NCBI RefSeq assembly: GCF_001306055.1
Contig: NZ_LGHJ01000008.1
Location: 30,001-62,000 of the forward strand
DNA length: 32,000 bases
Reading direction: 5' to 3'
DNA from: Bellilinea caldifistulae
Lineage (GTDB): Bacteria > Chloroflexota > Anaerolineae > Anaerolineales > Anaerolineaceae
Part shown: one piece after another, positions 1-13,158 of the stretch
How positions within the stretch are numbered: position 1 is the first letter of the stretch
Layout of the letters: every line of letters starts with the position of its first letter
Made by a program: the position numbers and the translations under genes
The notes under the pieces: generated by a model
What the model saw: only the letters and a program-made list of their open reading frames with translations
Databases searched by the model: none
Told to the model about the DNA's origin: nothing

Positions 1-431
1 GATTCTGAAATCGCAGCTCTTAATGCATCAATTTCCTGAGTGAGCAACAAGTCGAACAGAGTGACAAAATCGTGTCCTGTCTGTATGGACTCAATATCCG
101 AAGAAGTAATGACCAAGGGGCAGGGATAATAACAATTTCGATGTTTCGACAAAGTATTATTTGTATACAAATACCCAAATTGGATAATTGACCCATCAAA
201 TAGCATACAATGATAATGCCTATTTTCTATCAGGTTTCGATATTCAGTTATTGTCGCAAACCTTCCAACCAAAGCATCAAATAGTCTATCTGGAGCATTT
301 GCCCAGGTCAGGATTGAATCGTGACCAGAGTCCCGAATAATTGCCGAATTCCAATCAATAGCTAACCCCTCCTCTAAAAGAAAAGAAAGCAATTCGTTTA
401 TCTGTCTTACCAGTGCTCTAGCGGTCATCAT
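1..431 (-). CDS. Hypothetical protein, N-terminal 143 codons, runs off the left window edge. Not in the supplied ORF track.
   Basis: The reverse strand reads ATGATGACCGCTAGAGCACTG... from 431 or 428 and stays open to position 1 (MMTARALVRQINELLSFLLEEGLAIDWNSAIIRDSGHDS...). The start overlaps the helicase TAG stop (418-420) by 11-14 nt. It has the same AT-rich composition as the helicase gene. I recognise no family motif. Confidence 0.5.
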   Translation of the reverse strand, partial: MMTARALVRQINELLSFLLEEGLAIDWNSAIIRDSGHDSILTWANAPDRLFDALVGRFATITEYRNLIENRHYHCMLFDGSIIQFGYLYTNNTLSKHRNCYYPCPLVITSSDIESIQTGHDFVTLFDLLLTQEIDALRAAISE

Positions 432-2562
432 CCTCACCCGATCTCCCAAACAGCTCTTCCAATTGGGTTCGAAGTTCGCTAGGCAAATTTTCGATGGCAA
501 GATCTCCACTTGTAACTTGGGCAACAAAGTCCGCGAGGGTTTGCTGCATTTTCTGAACCTTCTCTCTTTCCTTGGGGGTCATGTCACGATGGATTTTTCG
601 TAATCTTTCGAGTTCTACGGGAGTAGGAACTCGAAATCTAAGTTGGTAATTATCCAAAACCACCTTATCTACTTCAGACTTCAGTCCTTCCATAGCTGTT
701 CCGCACCCAAACAACCTAACCCACGCCTTAGATCGAGTTATTGCAGTGAAAATAATATTGCGGCGCTTGCTTAACTCAAATCCTTCAAATGCATACTCGC
801 TGTTCAAAACATAAACCATTGGGGCTTCATTACCTTTAGCCCTATAGATTCCGGTGATTGCAACCGACTCATCCTTGAAAAGTTCATCACGACTGCTGGT
901 TACGCCTGCAAGATGAGTAGGGATATTTAATTGATTTAACTCTCTAAACAATATGGCAGCCTCCTCTTGGGCAGTTAAAGGATCAGAGAGGATAATTAGA
1001 ATATCTCGAAATTCCAATTCGTCTTCGGTCAGATTCTTTTTTATCTCACGTGCGACTGCTTTAGCTTGTGTAACTTTATCGGGAAACACCTGACAAAGTA
1101 TTGCATCATCTGAATCAAGTAATTGTTCGAAATAATCTGGATACGAATCCGAACGGCGTTTGAGAGCTACCTCTTGCCCTGGAGCAAGTGCACCAGATAC
1201 GACATGATACCCAACTTCTTCCCAGAGCCCCTGGGGATCATTGAAATATTGAACCAAACCTTGGTCGCGCTTTATGCCAAATCCAAGAGCATGAGCGATT
1301 GTTAATGCCCAGGGGGTGTTACGGTAACAAACGGGTAAAACAATATCCTGAGATGGCGATCCTTTCTCATTACGTAGCTCAGAGACTCGAGGCGAACCGC
1401 TAGAATCTTTTCCGAACAATTCGGAAGGTGGCACCATCGAATAACGACTGAGGTTTTGTAATTCGTCGTAAGCGTATACTATTCGTTTGGGTTCACGGGT
1501 CGCAAGATATGCCAACTCAAAGAAGGATTGTGGGAAATCCTGCGCTTCGTCTATAAGGACTACATCAAATATTGGCTGGAATTTCGCTTCACCGACTTCT
1601 TGTAGCAATTCTTGGCATACACCATCAAAAGCTGTAGGAGCGCCAAATGTACTTTTTGCATAATTGAAATCCTTGGGCAAAACGCCGTGAGCCATGGCAA
1701 CTTCGGAATAAAAGCCGGGCTGATTCGAACTACCCCAAGCATGAATGATGCGCAAATTTTCCCAGTTGGGTTCATCATTAATTTGATCGAAAGTGAAACG
1801 TCTGACAAGATCCTCAAATTGTTGATAGAGTGATCGGGTTTGAAAAGTAATCGCGATCTTCCATTCCGGTTTTAGTACATGAAGATAAGCTGCTTTCAAA
1901 GCCAAAACGATCGTCTTGCCTGAACCCGCTAGACCGCGAATTCTCTGCACCCCATCAGGCATTTCAACCGCGGCACTATTTTGCCATTTATCCAAATTAG
2001 CGATCTCTTTCTCTATCTCTTTTATGCGAGCACCACGAGAATCCGGCCTCTTGACAGAAGAGCGCTTACGTGAAGGCTTGATGGTTGTAACGCGCTCGAC
2101 CGCGGCATTTATTTTCTCGAGCAGATCGTGACTCACGGGTTGGAAGTCTCGGATAACATTTACCAAACTGTCCGGTCCTGTTAGTAACAAGCCATCCTCA
2201 CGAACTACTCCTCGCATTCCTGGGACAAGTGTTACTACGTTAATCTCAAAAGGGAGGCGTCGTCCCTCAACCAAGTTCTTGTATCGTTTGAGTTTAATTT
2301 CTAAAATTCTATATAGATCGTCTTGTCGTTGTCTCAGACGATTATCTTCGGCTGATCCTTGGGCGCGATCATCAAAATCAATTACAACCACACCACATTC
2401 CTGAGTGGTTAATAAAGCATCGATGAAAACTGTTTCTTCTACATCGGCTAGGATAGGATAGCCGATATAAAGAGTGCCATTCATCTCTACATCATTGAGT
2501 AACTCGATCAGCGTGTTTGCAGCTAAAGGATTACTCTTATGACCAACAACTAAATTCAACAT
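418..2562 (-). CDS. Superfamily 1 (UvrD/AAA_19-like) DNA helicase with a degenerate NERD/PD-(D/E)xK-like N-terminal domain
   Basis: 714 aa ORF. Walker A is GLAGSGKT, Walker B is VVLIDEAQDF, and CYRNT plus motif VI-like TAITRSKAW are present. N-terminal FIDALL...GVVVIDFDD resembles a NERD core but lacks ExK. SD GGAGGA lies 9 nt upstream of the ATG. The gene is AT-rich, unlike brxL. Confidence 0.8.
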   Translation of the reverse strand: MLNLVVGHKSNPLAANTLIELLNDVEMNGTLYIGYPILADVEETVFIDALLTTQECGVVVIDFDDRAQGSAEDNRLRQRQDDLYRILEIKLKRYKNLVEGRRLPFEINVVTLVPGMRGVVREDGLLLTGPDSLVNVIRDFQPVSHDLLEKINAAVERVTTIKPSRKRSSVKRPDSRGARIKEIEKEIANLDKWQNSAAVEMPDGVQRIRGLAGSGKTIVLALKAAYLHVLKPEWKIAITFQTRSLYQQFEDLVRRFTFDQINDEPNWENLRIIHAWGSSNQPGFYSEVAMAHGVLPKDFNYAKSTFGAPTAFDGVCQELLQEVGEAKFQPIFDVVLIDEAQDFPQSFFELAYLATREPKRIVYAYDELQNLSRYSMVPPSELFGKDSSGSPRVSELRNEKGSPSQDIVLPVCYRNTPWALTIAHALGFGIKRDQGLVQYFNDPQGLWEEVGYHVVSGALAPGQEVALKRRSDSYPDYFEQLLDSDDAILCQVFPDKVTQAKAVAREIKKNLTEDELEFRDILIILSDPLTAQEEAAILFRELNQLNIPTHLAGVTSSRDELFKDESVAITGIYRAKGNEAPMVYVLNSEYAFEGFELSKRRNIIFTAITRSKAWVRLFGCGTAMEGLKSEVDKVVLDNYQLRFRVPTPVELERLRKIHRDMTPKEREKVQKMQQTLADFVAQVTSGDLAIENLPSELRTQLEELFGRSGEDDDR

Positions 2563-2612
2563 GTTTAGTTATCCTCCAATTGACAGAAGTAGACATGATT
2601 CCAGTCACGCAT

Positions 2613-2640
2613 ATTCTAATCTAAAGATTGATAACTCCAA
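2613..2640 (-). promoter_or_regulatory. Candidate sigma70-type promoter for the helicase module
   Basis: On the minus strand, TTGGAG (2640-2635), a 16 nt spacer, then TAGAAT (2618-2613). It lies in the 78 nt AT-rich gap that begins exactly at the brxL stop. Confidence 0.3.
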
Positions 2641-4713
2641 TCACTCCAACCCCATCGCCCGGATGGCGGCGTTGATCGGGTCGGTATAGAAAGTCGCCTG
2701 CAGCTTGTTCAACACCTCATCCGGTACATCGGCCAGGTCGCGCTTATTTTCGCTCGGTATCAGCACATACTTGGCGCCGGAATCCAGCGCCAATTGCATC
2801 CGCTCGGTCAGGTTGGTTACTTTCAGCAGCAGTCCCTGAACGCTCATCTCGCCCAGCACCACCGTTTGCGCCCGGACAGGTTTGCCTAGCAAGGCTGAGA
2901 CCAACGATACGAAGAACGCCACCGCGGTTTCAGCGCCTTCCTTGGCTTGCTGCAGGTTAATCGCCTGCATGCTGAAATCGTAGCTTTTCAAATCGAGAGA
3001 GATACCCAATTTGTGGATGTTGGCTTTCAGATAAGCCTCGGCGGTCTTGATCCCTTCTTTCATGGCTTTCGATAGGTTGCCCAAGGGGATCATGCGCCCA
3101 GAGCCAGGATTGATCTGGGTTTGTAACAGGAACAAAGCCAACTTGCCGCTCTCGGCATCTCGACCAATGGTATAGACTGCTCCTGGAGCCAGGGTAATAG
3201 GTTCAATGATCAAACCGCCCCCCATCTCTGGCACTCTGACAAATTGCTCGTTGCCGGTTTCCAGGTCGCGATAGGAGAAATTCACGTCCCAGTACTCGAC
3301 GCCGGCGATTTTGCGCAATTGCTCCTTGACCCGCCGGCGCATTTCCATGGCAAAGATGAGGTATTCTTCGACCTCTTCTTTGGTAACCCGCCCATCCGGA
3401 TGGATCAGCTTAATCAAACCGGAAACTGTTTTCCGAACCGCTTTCTGGTCACGTCCGGTCAGATGGGAGCCAAATTGGAAGTACCTTTCGGGCACATCGG
3501 TGTAGCTGTCCTTGCGCAATGCCCGCATCACTTCAGCCAGATAATCCGAAACAAACCCGAAATGGTTGGTGTAGAACTCATCGCGCGTCTTTTGCAGTTC
3601 CCAACCAGGCAGGTAAAAGTGCAGGCGGTCGAAGAAGGCTGCGTCCATCTCCTTTGGCATGGGATAGAAAAGGTGCGAGGTTTTTACAATTGTTTCGATA
3701 TCGCCATCCAGATTGCCCAGGAAAACAATTGACCCTTCGGCGGTGATGATTTCGGAGCCGCGCGAGAAGTTGCCATCTTCCATGAACCCCTTCATGATGT
3801 TGATGCCATTTTTATCTTTGAAGCTGACCCCAGCCGCCTCATCAAAAGCCACAGTGTCCCACAAAGCGACCAAACCCTTGGCGCCCGTCGCCAGGTTGAC
3901 AAACATCTGAGCCACGGTTGTTTGCCCACCAGAAACAAGATGGCAGTACGGGCTGACTTGCTGATAAACAAAACTCTTACCCGTTCCCCGGGGGCCCAAC
4001 TCCACCATATTGAAGTTCTTTTCAACCAGTGGAATCAAACGGGAGAGATAGAGCAGCTTGACCCGATGGGTGAAATAGGGGTGGGTGGGCTCCAAACCCA
4101 GGCTGCGTAAGATAAAGTTGATCCATTCATCCCGGCTGAACTGCGCACGCGCAGCCCGGAAGCGGTCGAGTGAAAGGTTTGACACCTGGATCGGTTTCAA
4201 GTTTTCGATGACAAATGGGCGGTTTTGTCCCCGAAAGATGTAGGACTCGTCATATCCTAGACTCACCTCCGCCCAAATCCCACCTTGAACCAGGCGCTCG
4301 TGTTTGCGCAGATAGGCTTCGTCGATGTTTACAAAATCGAGGTTAATGTTAGCCAGCTCAGCCCAATACTTATCATGCGTCTCGACCAGGCGTACTTTCA
4401 CCTTATCAATGATTTCATAAACGCCATGCTGCTTGATGCGCGACTTTACCATTTCCCGCTCGCTGGGTTTGACGTACTTCGTCCGCAGCGTTTCACGCAC
4501 GTACTGCAAGCCTTCTTCGATGATCTCCGGGTCGGTTGTAGCGCAGTACTTGCCCAAGAGAAACTCGATCACAAACATCGGCACGCTAAACGCAGATCTC
4601 ACCCGGCGGAGCAGGTCTTTCCGCACCACCAAACCCGGAAACGCCTCTGTGGCTCGCTGATCGATTTCATCCAAGACCAAGGTTTCTAAACTGTTCATAA
4701 GCTCATCCTTCAC
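2641..4713 (-). CDS. brxL: BREX Lon-like protease/ATPase BrxL
   Basis: 690 aa. N-terminal FPGLVVRKDLLRRV, P-loop GPRGTGKS and a C-terminal Lon-protease-like region. It is the last gene after pglZ. The GTG at 4713 is the track start. The ATG at 4698, preceded by AAGGA, is an alternative. Confidence 0.9.
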   Translation of the reverse strand: MKDELMNSLETLVLDEIDQRATEAFPGLVVRKDLLRRVRSAFSVPMFVIEFLLGKYCATTDPEIIEEGLQYVRETLRTKYVKPSEREMVKSRIKQHGVYEIIDKVKVRLVETHDKYWAELANINLDFVNIDEAYLRKHERLVQGGIWAEVSLGYDESYIFRGQNRPFVIENLKPIQVSNLSLDRFRAARAQFSRDEWINFILRSLGLEPTHPYFTHRVKLLYLSRLIPLVEKNFNMVELGPRGTGKSFVYQQVSPYCHLVSGGQTTVAQMFVNLATGAKGLVALWDTVAFDEAAGVSFKDKNGINIMKGFMEDGNFSRGSEIITAEGSIVFLGNLDGDIETIVKTSHLFYPMPKEMDAAFFDRLHFYLPGWELQKTRDEFYTNHFGFVSDYLAEVMRALRKDSYTDVPERYFQFGSHLTGRDQKAVRKTVSGLIKLIHPDGRVTKEEVEEYLIFAMEMRRRVKEQLRKIAGVEYWDVNFSYRDLETGNEQFVRVPEMGGGLIIEPITLAPGAVYTIGRDAESGKLALFLLQTQINPGSGRMIPLGNLSKAMKEGIKTAEAYLKANIHKLGISLDLKSYDFSMQAINLQQAKEGAETAVAFFVSLVSALLGKPVRAQTVVLGEMSVQGLLLKVTNLTERMQLALDSGAKYVLIPSENKRDLADVPDEVLNKLQATFYTDPINAAIRAMGLE

Positions 4714-4716
4714 TGC

Positions 4717-7269
4717 CTAGCTCAGATCGCGCCCTGCCCGGATGGACATCCCATGGGCAAAATTATAGTGGGTGTCCTGATCCAACACCTGAAGTGGGAT
4801 TTGGGTTCCAGCCGCGATGATCGGCTCTCGATTCAAGAAGAGGGTAACGCTGATAGGCTCTGCGCTGCCGGGTTTGATCTCTATCGTTTTCTCATTGGAG
4901 CGCGGCGCCTCCGGCTCTCCGAGGAATACGCGCAACTTCAATCCCTCAACCTGGGTGTCGAACAGGTCTTTCGGCGCTGGCGTCTCCGGCGTTAATTCGA
5001 CTTTAACCGCCAGCGTAAAGATCTCGGTCTTGGGCAATTCCACCGTGACGCTCATCCGGCGCGGGACGGTCATCGAGACGAATTTCAAGTGGGGAATGAC
5101 CACTTCTTGAAGCGTGGCGCCGCCGTGAAAGAAACGCCCTGGCTCTGCAAAGCTGCGCAAGCCGGGAGGTAAGGCTACCTGCCAGTTTGGGTCCAACGGA
5201 AAGGGCACACTGGCAACCGGCAGTTTTTGACCCGCGTCGGTGATGCCCCAACGAGCAGCGCTCAACACCAACTGGCTCTTGTTCAGCTCGAGCGGCTGGA
5301 TGTTGGCGTTGGCGTTGAGCAAGACAAAGCCATGATCGGTCACCACATGGATCTCAGAATAACCCCAGCTTTTTAGCTTGCGGATTGCCCTGCCGAGGGT
5401 TGCGATCAGTTCTTCGAAATGCAGGATGACCTCATAGTTCGCCCCGTGACCCAGCTCATCCACGCCCCGATCGAACAACACCAGCATTTGGGGCAAAGAA
5501 GCAGGCTTTTCGGCGAGCTCCTGAAGATGATGGATCTCATCCTTCCGATTGCCCTTGCTGTCCACACCCAGATGGCTCGCTCCCGCAGCCTCAAGCAGCT
5601 TCCAACGATAAGCGCGGTAGCTCAAATCCCCACCGGCAGCCGGGGATGCCAAGACCGGTTTGCCCCCTTTGATCTCTAAATGAACGTCTGGAGTGGGCAG
5701 CAGGCTGGTCATCCCCACCCAGGTCTCGGAGGGCACATTCGCCAGGTAACCGCTCAGCTCGCCTTCCACCAAACTGGCGCGCAAGGCAGCCGCCAGATCG
5801 AAGCGCAAGGCGTCCACTACCAGGATCGCCTTGCGCGCCGCGCTGCTGGAAAAGAGCTCTGAAGCTAGTTCGGAGACCGATAGGCAGCCGCTGGGCGGCC
5901 ATTGAGCGGCATCGCGAAAGGCAGTGTAAAATGCCTGTCCGACGGCGTCCAGATATTTGGTATAAAAGTGATCGGCTGCCGCTGCCAGAAGCTCCATCTC
6001 ATCCGCCCGGAGCGCCGCAGCCATCAGCCGCCAGTGAGCCAGGTCGATCTGGTGCCAGTCCTTTATGTACGCCTCAACCAGATCGGAGGGCGTGAGCGAA
6101 GGATTGAGCACCCCGAGCACTTTGTCCACTCGCTCGACAAGATGGATCAACTCGAGCGCCAGCCCCCAGCCCAGGAGATCGCCCGTCCCCGATGCCCAGA
6201 AGCCCTTGACCTCTTCTTCGGCAATCCCCCGCTTTTCAATCAGGTAGCTGCGCAGTTCGCTTTCGCTTTGGGCAACCTGTTTCAATCCTTGAAGGTATTT
6301 CTTCCAACGTTCCGCCGCCAGCGAGTACAAGGCGTGCGGAGTCCCCGCTTTGCCTTCAGCCCAGGCGCGCAGATCGACCTTGGCATCCATTTTAAATTCC
6401 CAGCGCCGGTAAGTCTCCAGATGATCCCGGTCGCGTTGCCAGTGAGCCAGGAGCTTGCGCGCCGCGGCGCGGTGCTTCGGCTTTGGCAGTTCGGCAGATA
6501 AAGGATAATCCGCCGGGCTTCCGGTGGCTTCGTAGATCTCCTGGGCAATCAGCGACCTGACAAAAGCGGCTGCCCAGCCTTCCGGATCGTCCGGCAGGGA
6601 GGCGGTTTCGCCATATTGGGCAGCGACCTGGGAGCAAAACTCATCGGCGATGCCCTGTTGCTGGAGCATTTCCCATTCGTGCGCTGGATCAGCCAGGAAG
6701 CGCAGCAGGCGTTCCATTATATCCCCAACGATGCTCTCCTCGATCGCCGCGGCGGTCAGCACTTTCGACTTCCAAAAGGCTTCATCGCGGTCCAAATTGG
6801 TGCGCACATATTTCGCCAGCAGCGATTCGCCTCCGCCGCGCCAGAGGGCGTCCTGAGCGGCGCGGCTGCTGGGCAATGGCACGCCGTGTTTGCGCAAAAA
6901 AGCGAACAAGGTCGGTTGCCGCCCGTCGATCAGCCAGGTCAATCCCGAAAAGTGATATTCCATGAGCGGGTCGAGCGGCTCGATCTCCCACAAGGCGCTG
7001 GTCAAATCGCCGCGGTCGAATGGCAGCCAGAGAATCGCCTTCTTCCCTTGCGCAGGACCCGCCTCAAGCGCCCATTTCAGCCACAGCGCGCCGTGGTGAA
7101 GCTCCGGCTGATAAGCCAACAAGCAAACCCCTTGTTCAGCCAGTGATTTTTCGACCGCCGGCAAAAGGTGAGAAAACTCGGCGTTCCCGTCGAACCACAA
7201 TGCCACAGACGCCCGCGCATCGCGGGTAAACAGCTCGATGAAATCAGCAGTGATCCACTTCAAGATCAC
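4717..7269 (-). CDS. pglZ: BREX alkaline-phosphatase-superfamily protein PglZ
   Basis: 850 aa with the PglZ-type HVVTDHGF motif. The GTG start overlaps the upstream stop as GTGA. Its position between pglX and brxL is canonical. Confidence 0.92.
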   Translation of the reverse strand: MILKWITADFIELFTRDARASVALWFDGNAEFSHLLPAVEKSLAEQGVCLLAYQPELHHGALWLKWALEAGPAQGKKAILWLPFDRGDLTSALWEIEPLDPLMEYHFSGLTWLIDGRQPTLFAFLRKHGVPLPSSRAAQDALWRGGGESLLAKYVRTNLDRDEAFWKSKVLTAAAIEESIVGDIMERLLRFLADPAHEWEMLQQQGIADEFCSQVAAQYGETASLPDDPEGWAAAFVRSLIAQEIYEATGSPADYPLSAELPKPKHRAAARKLLAHWQRDRDHLETYRRWEFKMDAKVDLRAWAEGKAGTPHALYSLAAERWKKYLQGLKQVAQSESELRSYLIEKRGIAEEEVKGFWASGTGDLLGWGLALELIHLVERVDKVLGVLNPSLTPSDLVEAYIKDWHQIDLAHWRLMAAALRADEMELLAAAADHFYTKYLDAVGQAFYTAFRDAAQWPPSGCLSVSELASELFSSSAARKAILVVDALRFDLAAALRASLVEGELSGYLANVPSETWVGMTSLLPTPDVHLEIKGGKPVLASPAAGGDLSYRAYRWKLLEAAGASHLGVDSKGNRKDEIHHLQELAEKPASLPQMLVLFDRGVDELGHGANYEVILHFEELIATLGRAIRKLKSWGYSEIHVVTDHGFVLLNANANIQPLELNKSQLVLSAARWGITDAGQKLPVASVPFPLDPNWQVALPPGLRSFAEPGRFFHGGATLQEVVIPHLKFVSMTVPRRMSVTVELPKTEIFTLAVKVELTPETPAPKDLFDTQVEGLKLRVFLGEPEAPRSNEKTIEIKPGSAEPISVTLFLNREPIIAAGTQIPLQVLDQDTHYNFAHGMSIRAGRDLS

Positions 7270-9047
7270 GCCATGCCTCCCGGGGATTTCTCCACACCGG
7301 TCACCCTGCGGATTTCGGCGATGATCGCCGCTTCCCGGATCGAGAGGAACTTCTCATACACCTTTCGCAATTCAGCGTGTCCCAAGTCTTCCGTCGCTGC
7401 GCGCATTATTTCCAAGGCATCTGGACCGATGAAATGCGGCTGCAACAGTTCAGATTTCGCTCCGGCGGGGAAGATGTCCTCGCTCTGCAAGTATTCCGCC
7501 GGCGACTTGGCTTTGATCTTGTTGTTGGTCTCATCGCTGATCAGGGTGCGATTCACGATGGTGTTGATCTCCACCCGTTTCGTAAAGCCACGCTGTTGTA
7601 GATACCCGCGTGGGAAGATGTGGTGATCCTGCAAATCCTGGAGCTGGATGCTTTCGCCCCTGCGCCAGTCCCTGGCATTGCGCAACGCCAGCAGGCAAAA
7701 GACACCGCTGTAGACGGCGCTGCCGGTGGTCGCCGAATCGCGAATGGTATAGCTCGGGGAACCAATCAGAGCTTTGGCTTCGGTGAAAACGGATGGCTCC
7801 GGGCTGCCCTTTTGCCAGTATTCCAGCATTTCGATGTAATCTTTGCGCGACTTGCTCTCCACCGCGCTGGAGTAGCGCTCCATGAACACATTGCACCAAT
7901 ACCAGCGGCGCAAATCGGCGCGCGCCGCTTCCCCCAGCTTCTTCTCCTCGATGGTGGCGCGCAAGGCAGCCAGGGTGGGCAGCAAGCCAGAGCCAGGCAG
8001 CCACTTCGGATCGAAAGCGCCAAAACCATCCGGCGCAACGAGGGTGACCAATTCCAAAGCCTTTTCCATCGCCTGGGCTGCCCGGCGCCAATCTTTTTCA
8101 AAGTTTTCTGGGTCCAGATCGATCAGCTCTCGAGGAGTTGGTTTTACGTCTCTCAGCAGCGCCAGCGTGCGCAGCAATAAGACGCCAAAGTTGTTCTTTT
8201 CCGCCTTCCCCTCAGACCAGGCTGCCAGGCGCGGGTGCGCCTTACAGGCTCTCTCCCACAGGTTGTGCAGTTTGATGCCATGCCGATACAGCCGGGCGGT
8301 GAGCAGATCGTAGACCGAGAGCGCCACCCCGGTCGAATTGAGCTTTTCGAAAATGGCGCACACCCGACCGATGGCTTCGGAGTCAGAGTCTTCTACGCGG
8401 GGCAATTCCACCAGGGGAACCTGGTAGTTCTGGAAGGCGGTCACCAGATCCGTCCACGGATCGCGCCACTTGTCGCGGAAGTTCTGGTGGTCCGCTGGGC
8501 TGTTCTCGCGCAACCAGTCGTCCAAGCCATCGCGCCATTTGAGAAAATCCCGCGAGTTGAGCAAGCGCGTGCAGGGCAGGACGAGCTTCTGATACTGGGT
8601 CTGCTCGGTGAGCAAATCGGCCAGCTCGTCCTCGGCTCGGTCAAAGACGATTTCATCGTCATAGACATCTTCCAGAAGGAGTTTCAAGTCCAGAAAGAAC
8701 CATCTTCTGCGGCTGGAGTCTTTCAAGCCCAGGTTGGGCGCTGTCAGGGCGTAGAGCAAGGCGGTGATCCGTTGTTGCCCGTCCAGCACCAGCGATTCGG
8801 GCCTTGGTTGGTGGTATTGCGGCTTTGCGCCGCGAAAAAAGCGCGGCGCAAAAGGCGGGTTGTTCGGGTCGCAGCGCAGCAGAAGCAACGATCCGATGTA
8901 GTAACGCCGCACGATGGAGCGCAGCAAATCCGCCACCTCCTCGCGGCTCCAGACAAACTCGCGCTGGAACTCGGGGAGGCACACCGCCCCTTTGTGGGCT
9001 TGCTCGATGATGTTCACCAGATTGCGCTTATCGGGAAAAAGCTCCAC
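7266..9047 (-). CDS. brxU: DUF262 + DUF1524 (GmrSD family) type IV restriction enzyme, BrxU-like
   Basis: 593 aa. N-terminal DUF262 motifs QREFVW and DGQQRITAL. C-terminal His-Me finger-like DHHIFP...NRTLISDETNNKI. It has its own SD, AGGAGGAG, 4 nt before the GTG. Its stop overlaps the pglZ start by 4 nt. Confidence 0.85.
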   Translation of the reverse strand: MELFPDKRNLVNIIEQAHKGAVCLPEFQREFVWSREEVADLLRSIVRRYYIGSLLLLRCDPNNPPFAPRFFRGAKPQYHQPRPESLVLDGQQRITALLYALTAPNLGLKDSSRRRWFFLDLKLLLEDVYDDEIVFDRAEDELADLLTEQTQYQKLVLPCTRLLNSRDFLKWRDGLDDWLRENSPADHQNFRDKWRDPWTDLVTAFQNYQVPLVELPRVEDSDSEAIGRVCAIFEKLNSTGVALSVYDLLTARLYRHGIKLHNLWERACKAHPRLAAWSEGKAEKNNFGVLLLRTLALLRDVKPTPRELIDLDPENFEKDWRRAAQAMEKALELVTLVAPDGFGAFDPKWLPGSGLLPTLAALRATIEEKKLGEAARADLRRWYWCNVFMERYSSAVESKSRKDYIEMLEYWQKGSPEPSVFTEAKALIGSPSYTIRDSATTGSAVYSGVFCLLALRNARDWRRGESIQLQDLQDHHIFPRGYLQQRGFTKRVEINTIVNRTLISDETNNKIKAKSPAEYLQSEDIFPAGAKSELLQPHFIGPDALEIMRAATEDLGHAELRKVYEKFLSIREAAIIAEIRRVTGVEKSPGGMA

Positions 9048-9096: not shown

Positions 9097-12000
9097 TCAG
9101 CGCCCCTCCGGCGCCAGCAGGCTATCCAGGTCTTTCTTGGAGAGCACCTGCGCCGCCAGGAGACCCAGGCGCTGCACGGGGGCGATGTTGACCCGCACGC
9201 CGTCGTTGATGTCCGGATCCCAACCCACGGGTTGCTCCTCTGGGCTCTTCCAGGGCACCCAGATGCGCGCCTCGCGCTGGCGCCCCTCTTGCAGCAATCC
9301 CAGCCGACGGTCGAACTCCTCCACGTCGGCGATCTTCTCTTCCAGTTCGGCGGCGCGGTCCAGCGCCCGGCGGTCCAGCGCAGCCTGGTTCTGCGCCTCG
9401 CCGAGCTGGCGGCGCAGTTCTTTCAGGGTCTCGCTCACGTAGCGCGAGCGCAGCAGCTTCAGGCGATCTTTGTCGAACTTGTGATAATAGACGATTGCCT
9501 GAAAAGCGCCCTTGGGGCTGGTCAGGTGCCAGGCGATGGGGCGTTTTTTGAATTGGGAAACATGGCGCTTGAAGAACTCATCTTTGAACCAACGGTCAAG
9601 GGTGATTGGTTTATGTTTTCCCCATCCATCGTGTTTCTTCAATCCCAAAAAAATTCCAATTTCGCGTTCTACAATATGACCGTGTTCAGCCCCAAAAATA
9701 TTGTCTAAATATTGACTAAAACGTTTCGCGAGTACTTCTTCGCCTGTTCCAGGCGTAATTGGTATTATGCCGTCAACATCTATTTGCTCCGAATCTTGGG
9801 TAATCTTACCTCCGGCTTGCTCAACAACTTGTCGAGTAGGCCAATGAAATCCTAACGCTGCAAGCAATTTGGCTGAAAGATAATCCTGGACTAATTCATT
9901 AACTTCTAATGTGCATTTAAAATTCTCAACAATCCACAGTTCTCTTAGAAGCCAATAAACTGAAATTGGATGAATTGACAAGTTGGTAGATAGTTCTTCG
10001 ACAAGTGTTTCAGGTGGTATTGACAACTTAAAATTTGAAAAATTATTAACCACAACATTATTATTTGGATCTGGTGAATTATCTTTAGTTTGGTTAAGAC
10101 TTTCTGCATATTTGGGGACACCTGACAAATAAGCTCTGAGACGGTCCTTTAGATGTTCTAATTCACGATTTGATAGCTGAATACGATTATGGGAACGTAG
10201 TGCCTCATAGATATGATCAGGTAGCGTCTCCATTTCAGGAAGGGCCTCTATAATTGCGTCATACCCCTCAACTAATGGGTACCAAGATACAGGTAAACCG
10301 ATTTGCTCATAAACATGCTCTACGGTTTTTGGTGAGAGCGAATAATAATTGACTATTTTAAGCTCACACCAACCCTCCAATATATGCATCCAGCATTGGC
10401 GGAGATATCTATCGAAGATCTCTTGAATTATGGTCTCGGAAAAAGATCCTGTTGTTTTTAATTGATTATAAACATAGTCTCGGCTTGTAATATTTTCCCC
10501 TTCAAAAAGTACCCGCAAACGTAATATTATTTGAACAACTTTTGAAAGTTCATCATCCCTTAATTCCTCTAATGGAGGAACTGGAAGACTTTCGATATTT
10601 CCACTTGTATATGAATAATTCGGGGATACAAATGATAATAGATAACTTGCTAAGCGCGAATTTAATATTACAAGGATCAACCATCGATATAAAATCGATG
10701 TGTCTAAGTAGCGGCTTGTATCAAGAAAGATGAATCCTTTAGGTAGATACTTTGCATATACACGATAGCTGCTGAGTTTTGAGAATGTTAACCCCTCAAG
10801 CTTATAATAACGTGTGTTTTGAGGTCTTGACTTAAGTTTTCCATTTGCGTTTATGAAATTTCTTAATAAATGTCCATCTTCTCCCCATAAAACAACTAGG
10901 TTTGGAGATGTGTAATAACTGCGTGAATCTCCTCCGCTCATACACGGTACCCACCCCGGAGGCTCTGGATGGAATGATGTTACCTCCCACCATAGCCTTG
11001 TCCATCTTGGATTGTCTCCTGTAGCCAACCCGGATTTTGCAGAAGCGTATTTACCAAGCACTATATCTGAGCCAAGTATTTCCAACAATTCATCCCCTGC
11101 CCAATAACTTAAAGTTGCCCAAGGAAGTTTTACGAACCATCTTTGGCTAGCAATAAAAAATCTATCGCGTGGTCTATTCTTTATTACATCAAGCAACATT
11201 GATTGTTTATCTGTTCTATCATAAACCCTAAGATATTGACCAGAATACTCACTATCCATTTTTCCAGCAATGAAAAGACATATGTTTACAGCTGCGCCAC
11301 TAATCTCTGAGAAGCCTCCCTGACCAATATCGGCGTACATTTTCATCACAGCGTTATTGAAAAAATGCTTTCTTGCTTCGAAGAATGTCTCTGTATACCA
11401 ATATACTCGCTGAACAACCATTGAAATTAGCCCATCTTCAGAAATTAGCGATACGCATCTATCAATGAATGCAGCAAAAAGATCATTCGACGATAAAGGA
11501 TATTTTGTTGTCAAGAAGCCCCTGAGTGTATCCCCAAAGGCGAGACTACCCATATAAGGAGGATTTGTACATACAACATCATAACGTCGTGACAGTAAGC
11601 TCAATAAACCAATACTCTTCCATCCCTCCATACCAAAGATACGGCTTGTTAAATTCGTGCTTTGGTTTTCAACGTTGAAAACTTCCCGCAGGCGTTGGAA
11701 CAAAACCTGCTTGTATCCTTCCCAATCCCTGGCGGACGAGATCAGCGGGGCATCCCGATCCTCTTTCGCCTTCATTTTCCGAATGGCATCCTCGACCTCT
11801 TCTTCCACCCGCACCAGGCTGCCCAGCTCGCGCACGTGCTCCAGCGAATGCCAGATGGCGCGTATCGCCTCCTGGATGGCAGGGTCATCTTGATACTGGG
11901 CAAGCAGGTTTTCATACGCCTCGCCGCGGCTGAGCACGGCGTCGGCGACCACCAGGTTCAGGCGCGGCGGTCCGCCGGACTCATCCCAGCCCAGCTCTTT

Positions 12001-13158
12001 GGCTTTGAGATAGAGCGCCAGCGCCGCCAGTTGCACCGCCCGTAGGTCGATGTCGATGCCGTGCAGGTTGTTTTCGAGGATGACGCGCGCCGTCTGCTCG
12101 GCGGGCACCGACCAGCCGGCGGGCAGGCGACCATCGGCTTCCATCTGGCGTTCCTCTTTATATAACTGCGCTAGCAGGTCGAACGCCACTACTAGAAAAT
12201 GCCCGCTGCCCATCGCCGGGTCGAGCAGCTTCCACTCTTTGAGCGGTTTGGGCAGGCGGGTGTGCGGCGTGGCGGGGGTGACGTAATAGGGCCAGGCTTC
12301 TTTGGCGGGCGAATCGGGGTACATCTCCATCCAATAGGCGCCGATGGAATTCTGCAGCAGGAAGTCCACCATGTAGCGCTCGGTGTAGAGGGCAGTGTAG
12401 GTGGCGATATCCGGTCCGGTGTATTTCTTGGTCTTCTTCAGCTTTTGGGTGAAGGATTCTCCGGCGGTGACTTTCTCCTTCTCCTCGGTCTGGAAGTACT
12501 GATACACCCAGCCCAGCAGCTCGTCGGTGCGGAAGGCGTCCTCGGGCAGCTCGTTCAGCCGGTCAACCACCATCCGCAAGGTGCGGAAGGAAGGCCAGAC
12601 CTGGGCGTAAGGATCCGCCGGGTCAAATAGCACGCCGATCTCTTCGGTGACCGTGGCGCAGGCTTGCAGCAGCCCTTCGCGCCAGAGCAGCTCTTCCGCC
12701 TGGGCGCCGTGGCGGTAGCGGCTCTCGCGGGAGCGCAAGGTCCACAGCCACTTGGAGCGCCCGCCGAACTCCGCCCGGCAGGTCACCGCTTCGGTGCGCT
12801 CGCCTTCGATCACCAGGTGGCCGCGCAGCTCCAGGCATTTCAACCCCACCAGCCGGTTGAGGTGGGTGTAGGCGGCTTCGCGGCGCACGGCTTCCAGGGC
12901 GCCGGCGAAGGAGCCGATCGACTCCTGCTCTTTTGCCAGGATGGCTTCCAGCTCGGCGCGAATTGCCCGTTCCTGATCGGTCAGATAACTAAGCTTCTCC
13001 ACCGGAACCGGGGAGTCTTTGCTCCCATCAAAACCCAGGCGGCGCAGCTCGCGCTCCAGGTCCTCTTCCAGCGTGCGGCGCAGCTCGATGATCAAAGGCT
13101 TCAGCCGCTTCTTGACCTCATCGCTCAATGCAGGGCGTCCGTTGACTGGCTGGCTCAT
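9097..13158 (-). CDS. pglX: BREX N6-adenine DNA methyltransferase PglX
   Basis: 1353 aa. Motif I is LLDPAMGSGHF (about 12.2 kb). Motif IV, NPPY, is encoded at 11554-11565. The conserved C-terminal region contains KKRPIAWHL. The ATGA start overlaps the brxC stop. Confidence 0.93.
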   Translation of the reverse strand: MSQPVNGRPALSDEVKKRLKPLIIELRRTLEEDLERELRRLGFDGSKDSPVPVEKLSYLTDQERAIRAELEAILAKEQESIGSFAGALEAVRREAAYTHLNRLVGLKCLELRGHLVIEGERTEAVTCRAEFGGRSKWLWTLRSRESRYRHGAQAEELLWREGLLQACATVTEEIGVLFDPADPYAQVWPSFRTLRMVVDRLNELPEDAFRTDELLGWVYQYFQTEEKEKVTAGESFTQKLKKTKKYTGPDIATYTALYTERYMVDFLLQNSIGAYWMEMYPDSPAKEAWPYYVTPATPHTRLPKPLKEWKLLDPAMGSGHFLVVAFDLLAQLYKEERQMEADGRLPAGWSVPAEQTARVILENNLHGIDIDLRAVQLAALALYLKAKELGWDESGGPPRLNLVVADAVLSRGEAYENLLAQYQDDPAIQEAIRAIWHSLEHVRELGSLVRVEEEVEDAIRKMKAKEDRDAPLISSARDWEGYKQVLFQRLREVFNVENQSTNLTSRIFGMEGWKSIGLLSLLSRRYDVVCTNPPYMGSLAFGDTLRGFLTTKYPLSSNDLFAAFIDRCVSLISEDGLISMVVQRVYWYTETFFEARKHFFNNAVMKMYADIGQGGFSEISGAAVNICLFIAGKMDSEYSGQYLRVYDRTDKQSMLLDVIKNRPRDRFFIASQRWFVKLPWATLSYWAGDELLEILGSDIVLGKYASAKSGLATGDNPRWTRLWWEVTSFHPEPPGWVPCMSGGDSRSYYTSPNLVVLWGEDGHLLRNFINANGKLKSRPQNTRYYKLEGLTFSKLSSYRVYAKYLPKGFIFLDTSRYLDTSILYRWLILVILNSRLASYLLSFVSPNYSYTSGNIESLPVPPLEELRDDELSKVVQIILRLRVLFEGENITSRDYVYNQLKTTGSFSETIIQEIFDRYLRQCWMHILEGWCELKIVNYYSLSPKTVEHVYEQIGLPVSWYPLVEGYDAIIEALPEMETLPDHIYEALRSHNRIQLSNRELEHLKDRLRAYLSGVPKYAESLNQTKDNSPDPNNNVVVNNFSNFKLSIPPETLVEELSTNLSIHPISVYWLLRELWIVENFKCTLEVNELVQDYLSAKLLAALGFHWPTRQVVEQAGGKITQDSEQIDVDGIIPITPGTGEEVLAKRFSQYLDNIFGAEHGHIVEREIGIFLGLKKHDGWGKHKPITLDRWFKDEFFKRHVSQFKKRPIAWHLTSPKGAFQAIVYYHKFDKDRLKLLRSRYVSETLKELRRQLGEAQNQAALDRRALDRAAELEEKIADVEEFDRRLGLLQEGRQREARIWVPWKSPEEQPVGWDPDINDGVRVNIAPVQRLGLLAAQVLSKKDLDSLLAPEGR
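9550..11680 (-). other. AT-rich block inside pglX (about residues 493-1203), a putative exchanged catalytic-loop/target-recognition segment
   Basis: Hand counts of 60-nt lines give 23% G+C at 10021-10080 and 40% at 11581-11640, against 58% at 11701-11760, 73% at 12661-12720 and 58% at 9481-9540. The reading frame is uninterrupted. Confidence 0.75.

Follow-up and report, generated by a model that had tools for sequence, protein, structure and literature searches.

The window analysed here is a 32,000-nucleotide (nt) stretch of the Bellilinea caldifistulae genome (contig NZ_LGHJ01000008.1, 30,001–62,000). Its left end, window 1–2562 on the minus strand, carries a gene pair encoding a superfamily 1 (SF1) helicase and a DUF2290 protein, which lies directly downstream of a type 1 bacteriophage exclusion (BREX) operon (Table 1). 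The brxL stop codon, TGA, is at 2643–2641 and the helicase start codon, ATG, at 2562–2560; the 78 nt between them include the helicase Shine-Dalgarno sequence GGAGG (2577–2573), 10 nt upstream of the ATG. As an earlier note, made from the sequence without database searches, had described, this open reading frame (ORF) encodes a 714 amino acid (aa) SF1 helicase with its own Shine-Dalgarno sequence, and it ends in a TAG at 420–418. The partner ORF, which the accompanying list of ORFs had omitted, has in-frame ATGs at 431–429 and 428–426 and stays open for 143 codons to base 1, with a GAGG motif immediately upstream of the ATGATG (431–426). The change in composition that the earlier note placed at the brxL stop codon was also observed: the GC content of 100-nt intervals falls from 0.55 (2700–2799) to 0.36 (2500–2599), and GC content and GC content at third codon positions (GC3) are 0.53 and 0.66 in brxL and 0.59 and 0.70 in pglZ compared with 0.44 and 0.38 in the helicase gene and 0.39 and 0.36 in the partner. 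On the source contig this AT-rich block runs past the window edge through two more genes. A consensus scan found no minus-strand promoter within the spacer (2563–2640), so the promoter that had been thought plausible is reduced to a candidate picked by eye, TTGGAG-N16-TAGAAT. No terminator was found after brxL in a scan of 1–3200, which makes co-transcription of the pair with BREX possible; no Rfam family was found in the same region, and the repeats there are short chance matches.

Contig DF967971.1 (3.7 Mb) of GCA_001050215.2 encodes the identical helicase protein; we have designated this locus L001 (other loci are numbered in the same way), and window base 1 is its position 12562. The complete DUF2290 ORF of this source contig (L001 12132–12875) encodes 247 aa, which showed that the unlisted ORF is real and completed it beyond the window edge. 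Pfam PF10053 (DUF2290) matched the 143-aa fragment with E = 4e-15, and the full 247-aa protein matched two PADLOC DUF2290 models, PDLC02998 (E = 7e-35) and PDLC02999 (E = 3e-26). The helicase, in which the Pfam domain UvrD_C_2 was found, matched the PADLOC model PDLC03002 'Helicase' with 797 bits (E = 2.6e-240), and this alignment runs from end to end (helicase residues 1–706, model 1–705 of 707). Systems of this composition are named Rst_HelicaseDUF2290 in DefenseFinder and helicase-DUF2290 in PADLOC. The helicase and DUF2290 pair of Klebsiella pneumoniae SB5961, encoded in a P4-like satellite hotspot, specifically inhibits phage T7 (Rousset et al. 2022, PMC9122126); as the system was validated there, the pair belongs to a system that has already been described. 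The statements of the earlier note that the partner had no recognisable motif and that the unit might be undescribed are superseded, because the profiles place the pair in a catalogued system. We consider it very probable (roughly 0.9) that the window pair is a further member of the Helicase+DUF2290 anti-phage system and is independent of BREX. Papers after Rousset et al. 2022 name or delete the system, and a mechanism is given in none of them; in P. aeruginosa MPAO1 the effects of deleting it depended on the phage, and one preprint hypothesises a Hachiman-like mode. A protein search of a phage genome collection gave no match to the helicase, and PHROGs contained no DUF2290 family and gave the helicase a generic helicase match only. 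The NCBIfam label 'STM2767 family helicase' was rejected for the window helicase as sub-threshold (128 bits compared with a cut-off of 550), and NCBIfam had no model for DUF2290.

Table 1. Coordinates of the gene pair and of the adjoining BREX gene in the window
Feature	Position (bp)	Strand	Basis
SF1 helicase of Helicase-DUF2290 system (714 aa)	418..2562	-	PADLOC PDLC03002, Pfam UvrD_C_2, motifs
Helicase N-terminal domain (aa 1-130), probably NERD-like	2173..2562	-	Alignment with Halapricum helicase, 60 homologues
DUF2290 partner gene, codons 1-143 of 247	1..431	-	Pfam PF10053; remaining 313 nt left of window
Helicase/DUF2290 overlap, 14 nt, coupling-type junction	418..431	-	Sequence reading
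AT-rich spacer, 78 nt, GC 0.35, left edge of BREX operon	2563..2640	-	Sequence and composition
brxL, final gene of type 1 BREX operon; context, outside the system	2641..4713	-	Pfam, PADLOC

Scanning one genome per GTDB species with a sequence pattern yielded 80 loci with a helicase identity of 38–50%, of which 77 extended 800 nt or more beyond the end of the helicase gene and were used to count partners. DUF2290 was encoded directly after the helicase and on the same strand in 76 of the 77, and the paired loci span Acidobacteria, Actinomycetota, Cyanobacteria, Bacillota, Pseudomonadota, Planctomycetota, Chloroflexota and Saccharibacteria. The helicase-DUF2290 pairing is near-obligate. The two genes overlap in 41 of the 76 loci (by 4 nt in 17 and by 14 nt in eight) and are separated by 0–10 nt in the other 35, the extremes being a 35-nt overlap and a 10-nt gap. 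These junctions support the translationally coupled two-gene unit that the earlier note had suggested from the overlap in the window, and neither of the outcomes that would have spoken against it, a partner frame that closes or a partner that is not conserved, was encountered. The sole locus lacking DUF2290 (L077) has a type II restriction enzyme and a Dcm-type methylase downstream, which were regarded as a separate system and not as an alternative partner. A full HMMER scan placed DUF2290 proteins in 1583 clusters at 50% identity, and the best 150 of the 1583 representatives are almost all stand-alone proteins of approximately 200–300 aa. One apparent fusion (P0272), in which helicase residues 1–405 are joined to DUF2290, was rejected as a deletion artefact and does not represent a real architecture.

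The helicase consists of an N-terminal domain (approximately aa 1–130), a core (approximately aa 185–640) and a helical C-terminal tail. Motifs I to VI, which do not vary among 60 homologues, are located at GSGKT 213–217, DEAQD 338–342, YDELQ 365–369, YRN 413–415, RAKGNE 574–579 and T606/R610. The AlphaFold2 (AF2) model of the helicase had a predicted local distance difference test score (pLDDT) of 86, and its best folds in the PDB were SLFN11 (2.7e-16), PcrA/UvrD/Rep (approximately 1e-12), Dna2, Upf1 and RecD, with low template modelling (TM) scores of 0.3–0.45. A profile search of PDB sequences revealed no solved structure in the window helicase family. It also revealed no full-length sequence relationship to the housekeeping SF1 clade of UvrD/PcrA/Rep and RecD (fold TM 0.35–0.45); the earlier note had allowed for a RecD- or PcrA-like housekeeping enzyme, and the family was instead found on plasmids, on integrative and conjugative elements (ICEs) and in defence islands, with the sequence match confined to Walker A.

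At the positions where nucleases carry D...ExK, the N-terminal domain of the window helicase reads D48 ... I61-D62-F63-D64, as the earlier note had stated in reporting ExK to be replaced by DFD. All 60 homologues have Asp or Glu at the position of D48. At position 62, 43 of them have Asp and the others His, Ala, Asn, Ser or Ile, and more distant members have Leu, Asn or Ser there; position 64 varies. None of the partnered helicases examined has the catalytic Lys, and D48, D81 and R101 stay conserved in the domain. No match to Pfam NERD (PF08378) was found for the N-terminal domains of 10 family members at E ≤ 10, and a profile of 42 N-terminal domain sequences found nothing relevant among PDB sequences; in the AF2 model, helices and strands follow one another in an order compatible with a NERD/restriction-endonuclease fold. 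A helicase of Halapricum desulfuricans (WP_229123120.1; L082 3911–6064), which is encoded on plasmid pHSR-Est01 next to an IS6 transposase and has no adjoining DUF2290 gene, is 30% identical to the window helicase over residues 24–652 and is annotated by NCBI as having a nuclease-related domain. An alignment of the N-terminal segments showed PDF...GLIIVECKG in the Halapricum protein opposite IDA...VVVIDFDD in the window helicase, so that the relative keeps D...ECK at the aligned positions. With D48 kept and the Lys lost, this alignment agrees with the degenerate NERD/PD-(D/E)xK-like domain proposed in the earlier note. Read in the context of the family, the replacement of ExK by DFD points to a retired nuclease site, and the alignments suggest that the domain is a NERD-like fold that has lost ExK in the partnered helicases. 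The 'nuclease-helicase type defence pair' of the earlier note is accordingly upheld as a defence pair, and the nuclease label is doubtful for the helicase itself. The Halapricum helicase with its intact D...ExK may represent an ancestral bifunctional state.

The predicted model of the DUF2290 protein had a pLDDT of 88.6 and a predicted TM score (pTM) of 0.86. No fold match was found for it in the PDB or BFVD (best E 0.05, TM <0.25), nor was there a match to the DUF2290 profile among PDB sequences; weak fold matches resembling UTRA, p32 and BLIP were rejected as noise. Residues Y64, D79, Q84, H97, R98, C104, R160, D162, H172, H176 and R185 were 89–100% conserved across 173 diverse members, and this cluster would form an enzyme-like constellation suited to phosphate binding. 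A reading of residues 175–205 (strand-strand-helix) as a His-Me finger was considered and is not claimed, H196 being less than 85% conserved among the 173.

Analysis of the source genome beyond the pair (L001 13040–16800) revealed AT-rich genes encoding GMT-wHTH and DUF5131 proteins, the PADLOC candidate PDC-M30/M41, followed by an RmrA-like protein with a helix-turn-helix (HTH) and an M78 peptidase domain (HTH-M78), whose gene overlaps a DUF3368/PIN gene. After these defence candidates come a tyrosine integrase, a ribbon-helix-helix (RHH) protein, ParA and FtsK, which belong to the backbone of the element. Because further defence candidates and then the integrase, ParA and FtsK follow the pair, the brxL-to-integrase stretch is best described, from its gene content, as a variable cargo slot of an integrative element that has type 1 BREX as its main cargo. 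A sister element (L102) encodes a BrxL that is 83% identical and a tyrosine integrase that is 51% identical, as well as ParA, and in this element just 388 nt separate brxL from the integrase gene, leaving the site empty. The slot between pglX and pglZ also differs, being occupied by Septu (PtuA and PtuB) in L102 and by a GmrSD-like gene in the window. Six places were sampled from the cluster of 98%-identical BrxL proteins. An intact helicase gene was present at one of these; in the other five sibling BREX copies (L096 and L098–L101) the helicase ORF, 92% identical up to that point, ends at residue 427. The sole truncated copy that extends further (L096, 10137–12070) continues with an insertion sequence (IS) 1-family transposase gene on the opposite strand, and metabolic genes replace the rest of the island, namely DUF2290, the PDC pair and the integrase.

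Outside such islands, the pair was found as the main cargo of 4.5–11 kb Acinetobacter plasmids that carry neither restriction-modification (RM) systems nor BREX, as well as on an IncI-gamma/K1 plasmid of E. coli, on Corynebacterium and Lactococcus plasmids and on ICEs of E. coli. One of the Acinetobacter plasmids, the 4546 bp plasmid of Acinetobacter pittii (L083), encodes little besides a BrnT/BrnA toxin-antitoxin and helicase-DUF2290, which shows that a very small replicon can have the pair as its principal cargo. BREX was located within 10 kb of the pair in only one of the 80 surveyed loci. Neither BrxHI nor BrxHII was among the PADLOC models matched by the window helicase at E ≤ 0.01; these are superfamily 2 (SF2) helicases, Ski2-like or RapA-like (PMC12839542), unlike the window helicase, which is SF1 by its motifs and fold. 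Composition and context indicate that the pair is separately acquired cargo from a lower-GC source and not a BREX subunit. Between the two origins offered in the earlier note, an independent defence pair inserted in the island agrees with the PADLOC identity, the empty sister site and the truncated sibling copies, and an undescribed BREX accessory does not agree with a pair that is a described system, is rarely near BREX and accompanies the same BREX with its helicase truncated.

Recurrence next to brxL, about which the earlier note had asked, was seen in one close relative (L087, helicase 91% identical) and stands against the single BREX-associated locus among the 80. Including the window, four independent BREX placements of the pair were seen. 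The window and L087 represent the placement after brxL. In L089 (1–7810) and L090, where the helicase is 65% identical, the pair lies between pglX and pglZ-brxL of a type 1 BREX, and the ORF upstream of it aligns with the C-terminus of PglX. In Halomonas sp. PR-M31 (L055 1–5534, NZ_JIBT01000009.1) it lies inside pglX, with pglZ and brxL next; the upstream ORF ends at approximately residue 659 of the window PglX and a downstream 630-aa ORF resumes at approximately residue 658, so this PglX appears to be either split or disrupted by the insertion. In the fourth placement (L092 1–8406; L089 and L092 are metagenome contigs), a type 3 BREX (PglXI, PglZ, BrxA) ends with brxA, and the pair begins 97 nt further on. 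The pair is co-oriented at every BREX placement, with spacers of 37–97 nt. Two further close relatives lie beside RM systems, one of them type III-like and the other type I with GmrSD, and two others examined had no BREX or RM neighbour. At least nine of the 80 surveyed loci had RM or BREX-like neighbours by a test of low sensitivity. Independent systems embedded in BREX have been described (10.1101/2024.01.29.577857), and DUF2290 was absent from the main text and searched supplements of the papers on BREX diversity and 'embedded defences'. We read the docking at BREX as probable defence-island and embedding behaviour, with functional back-up as a minority hypothesis.

Three neighbouring genes of the operon were also analysed. 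The brxL product has the Pfam domains BrxL_N, BrxL_ATPase and Lon_C and a PADLOC BrxL score of 933 bits; its mechanically called ORF of 690 aa starts at a GTG at 4713, and the homologues and the contig gene call have the 685-aa version, which starts at an ATG five codons downstream. Between pglX and pglZ, a gene on the minus strand (window 7266–9047) encodes a 593-aa GmrSD_N/DUF262 protein and overlaps the start of pglZ with its end; the best PADLOC matches, PDC-M55C and HEC-05 (BrxU family), suggest an embedded BrxU-like type IV restriction candidate. The window pglX (9097–13158, minus strand) is chimeric in composition, with a GC3 of 0.76 at 11500–13158 (N-terminal) compared with 0.40 at 9097–11499; the low-GC C-terminal part of approximately 800 codons looks like a target-recognition and C-terminal region exchanged by recombination with a low-GC donor. 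PglX is 1366 aa on the sibling contigs and 1353 aa in the window.

We propose a mechanism in which the helicase and DUF2290, made in fixed proportion by translational coupling, would act as a complex. The SF1 helicase would be both sensor and motor, loading on a nucleic-acid structure or nucleoprotein of phage infection and translocating from there, and its N-terminal NERD-like domain, having no catalytic lysine, would serve as a DNA-binding or docking scaffold. The effector chemistry would be supplied by DUF2290, a stand-alone protein of approximately 230 aa with no solved fold relative, and would most likely be phosphodiester cleavage of nucleic acid. This division of labour is supported by the invariant helicase motifs, by the loss of ExK in the partnered helicases and its retention in the Halapricum relative, which has no adjoining DUF2290, and by the conserved polar cluster and unmatched, confidently modelled fold of DUF2290; we judge the chances that the roles are divided in this way, with DUF2290 as the effector, to be about even.

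The Klebsiella Helicase + DUF2290 system (PMC9122126) resembles the window pair in its helicase-then-DUF2290 gene order, its full-length PADLOC helicase profile and PF10053, and in being carried by mobile elements or defence hotspots. The host lineage differs, and the carrier in the window is an integrative BREX island and not a P4 satellite; among the E. coli copies of the system found, even the closest were only 41–45% identical to the window helicase. Hachiman (PMC12278908) likewise consists of two genes, a helicase and a small effector, and is plausible as a working analogy, with a helicase that holds back or licenses its effector when it senses aberrant DNA. However, HamB is an SF2 helicase and HamA a DUF1837 PD-(D/E)xK nuclease, whereas the window pair has an SF1 helicase and a partner of an unrelated, unmatched fold, and PADLOC gave no HamA or HamB match to it. 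Gabija is alike in combining an SF1 UvrD-like ATPase (GajB) with a separate effector (GajA, an OLD-family nuclease), and weak PADLOC GajB matches to the window helicase were seen (E 3e-5 to 3e-4). This similarity is limited to the Walker A region and a short core segment (approximately residues 480–550), the window pair has no GajA/OLD/TOPRIM partner, and both gene order and N-terminal domain differ. Nhi, AbiO and single-gene NERD-helicases share the arrangement of an N-terminal NERD-type domain followed by an SF1 helicase, but they have no DUF2290 partner, and the Halapricum protein keeps the D...ExK that is lost in the window family; the PADLOC Nhi and AbiO matches to the window helicase were marginal (E approximately 1e-3) and covered short helicase-core segments only. 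The embedded or adjacent systems BrxU/GmrSD, PARIS and Septu (PMC8565348, 10.1101/2024.01.29.577857) are, like the pair, co-oriented with and tightly docked to BREX genes, and the pglX-pglZ slot, GmrSD-like in the window, holds Septu or Helicase-DUF2290 in relatives. Unlike these, Helicase-DUF2290 is in most copies not near BREX.

Other explanations of the pair differ in which protein acts and in what the pair does for BREX. It is rather unlikely that the helicase is itself the effector, as a bifunctional nuclease-helicase like Nhi or Dna2, with DUF2290 as a regulator, an antitoxin-like inhibitor or a phage sensor. The alignment of its N-terminal domain with the D...ExK domain of the partnerless Halapricum helicase, the conserved D48 (acidic in all 60 homologues), D81 and R101, and the presence of the nuclease-helicases Dna2 and SLFN11 among the best fold matches would all fit such an enzyme. 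However, the whole partnered clade lacks the catalytic Lys, just 43 of 60 homologues have Asp at position 62 (the Glu equivalent), where distant members have Leu, Asn or Ser, NERD was not matched in Pfam, and the polar cluster of DUF2290 is far more strictly conserved. It is extremely improbable that the pair is an accessory subunit, so far undescribed, that this type 1 BREX requires for restriction or methylation in this lineage. The pair does share the strand of brxL across a 78-nt spacer with no terminator between them, an arrangement that is kept in L087, but it was without a PADLOC BrxHI or BrxHII match, the same BREX persists with a truncated helicase, the sister BREX has an empty site, the composition of the pair is foreign to the operon, and the pair is overwhelmingly found without BREX. 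This explanation is largely refuted.

It is also improbable that Helicase-DUF2290 was selected as a back-up of BREX and RM systems, firing in the manner of PARIS when these are blocked, for example by an anti-restriction protein that mimics DNA, as Ocr of T7 does. The co-orientation and close spacing at all four independent BREX placements and the two more close relatives beside type III-like or type I RM are consistent with such a role, as are the finding that T7, the only phage blocked by the validated homologue, carries the gene for the BREX and RM inhibitor Ocr, and the description of back-up systems embedded in BREX (10.1101/2024.01.29.577857). Set against this, BREX lies within 10 kb in only one of the 80 diverse loci, the loci with RM or BREX-like neighbours (at least nine of 80) can be put down to ordinary defence-island clustering, the pair is the main cargo of 4.5–11 kb plasmids that have neither RM nor BREX, and no trigger has been reported for it. 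A similarly small chance is given to the wider proposal that the pair is a dedicated second-line module of methylation-based immunity, which may be triggered once BREX or RM systems have been neutralised, for example by such DNA mimics; DUF2290 would then have a novel fold with nuclease or phosphodiesterase activity and would be licensed by a helicase with a retired NERD nuclease.

Membership in the catalogued anti-phage system, with an effector DUF2290 and independence from BREX, is the reading that we prefer, and several points weigh against parts of it. Membership is assigned by PADLOC and Pfam profiles and not by direct comparison with the validated Klebsiella sequence, and a Lactococcus homologue gave no protection from the phages tested (PMC11381338). 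The profile search of PDB sequences gave the helicase a match in the Walker A region only, to PcrA (E = 1.6e-5). No known nuclease fold or motif was detected in DUF2290, the putative nuclease activity of which is argued from residue conservation and from the analogy with Hachiman and Gabija, and the conserved D48 and D81 make residual metal binding by the helicase domain possible. Additionally, the pair runs in the same direction as brxL without an intervening terminator, and it may be co-regulated with BREX.

The locus is in itself unremarkable: it holds a defence system that is already catalogued, within a defence island. The BREX literature searched contained no account of the recurrent docking of the pair at BREX. 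The neighbourhood of the pair, with an empty site, an IS-truncated copy and an intact copy, amounts to a natural experiment in the modular exchange of a mobile BREX island, and the alternation of GmrSD and Septu in the pglX-pglZ slot belongs to the same picture. For the family, a system without a described mechanism gains a testable anatomy that comprises an invariant helicase core, an apparently NERD-like domain without its Lys and a conserved cluster of Asp, His and Arg residues in DUF2290.

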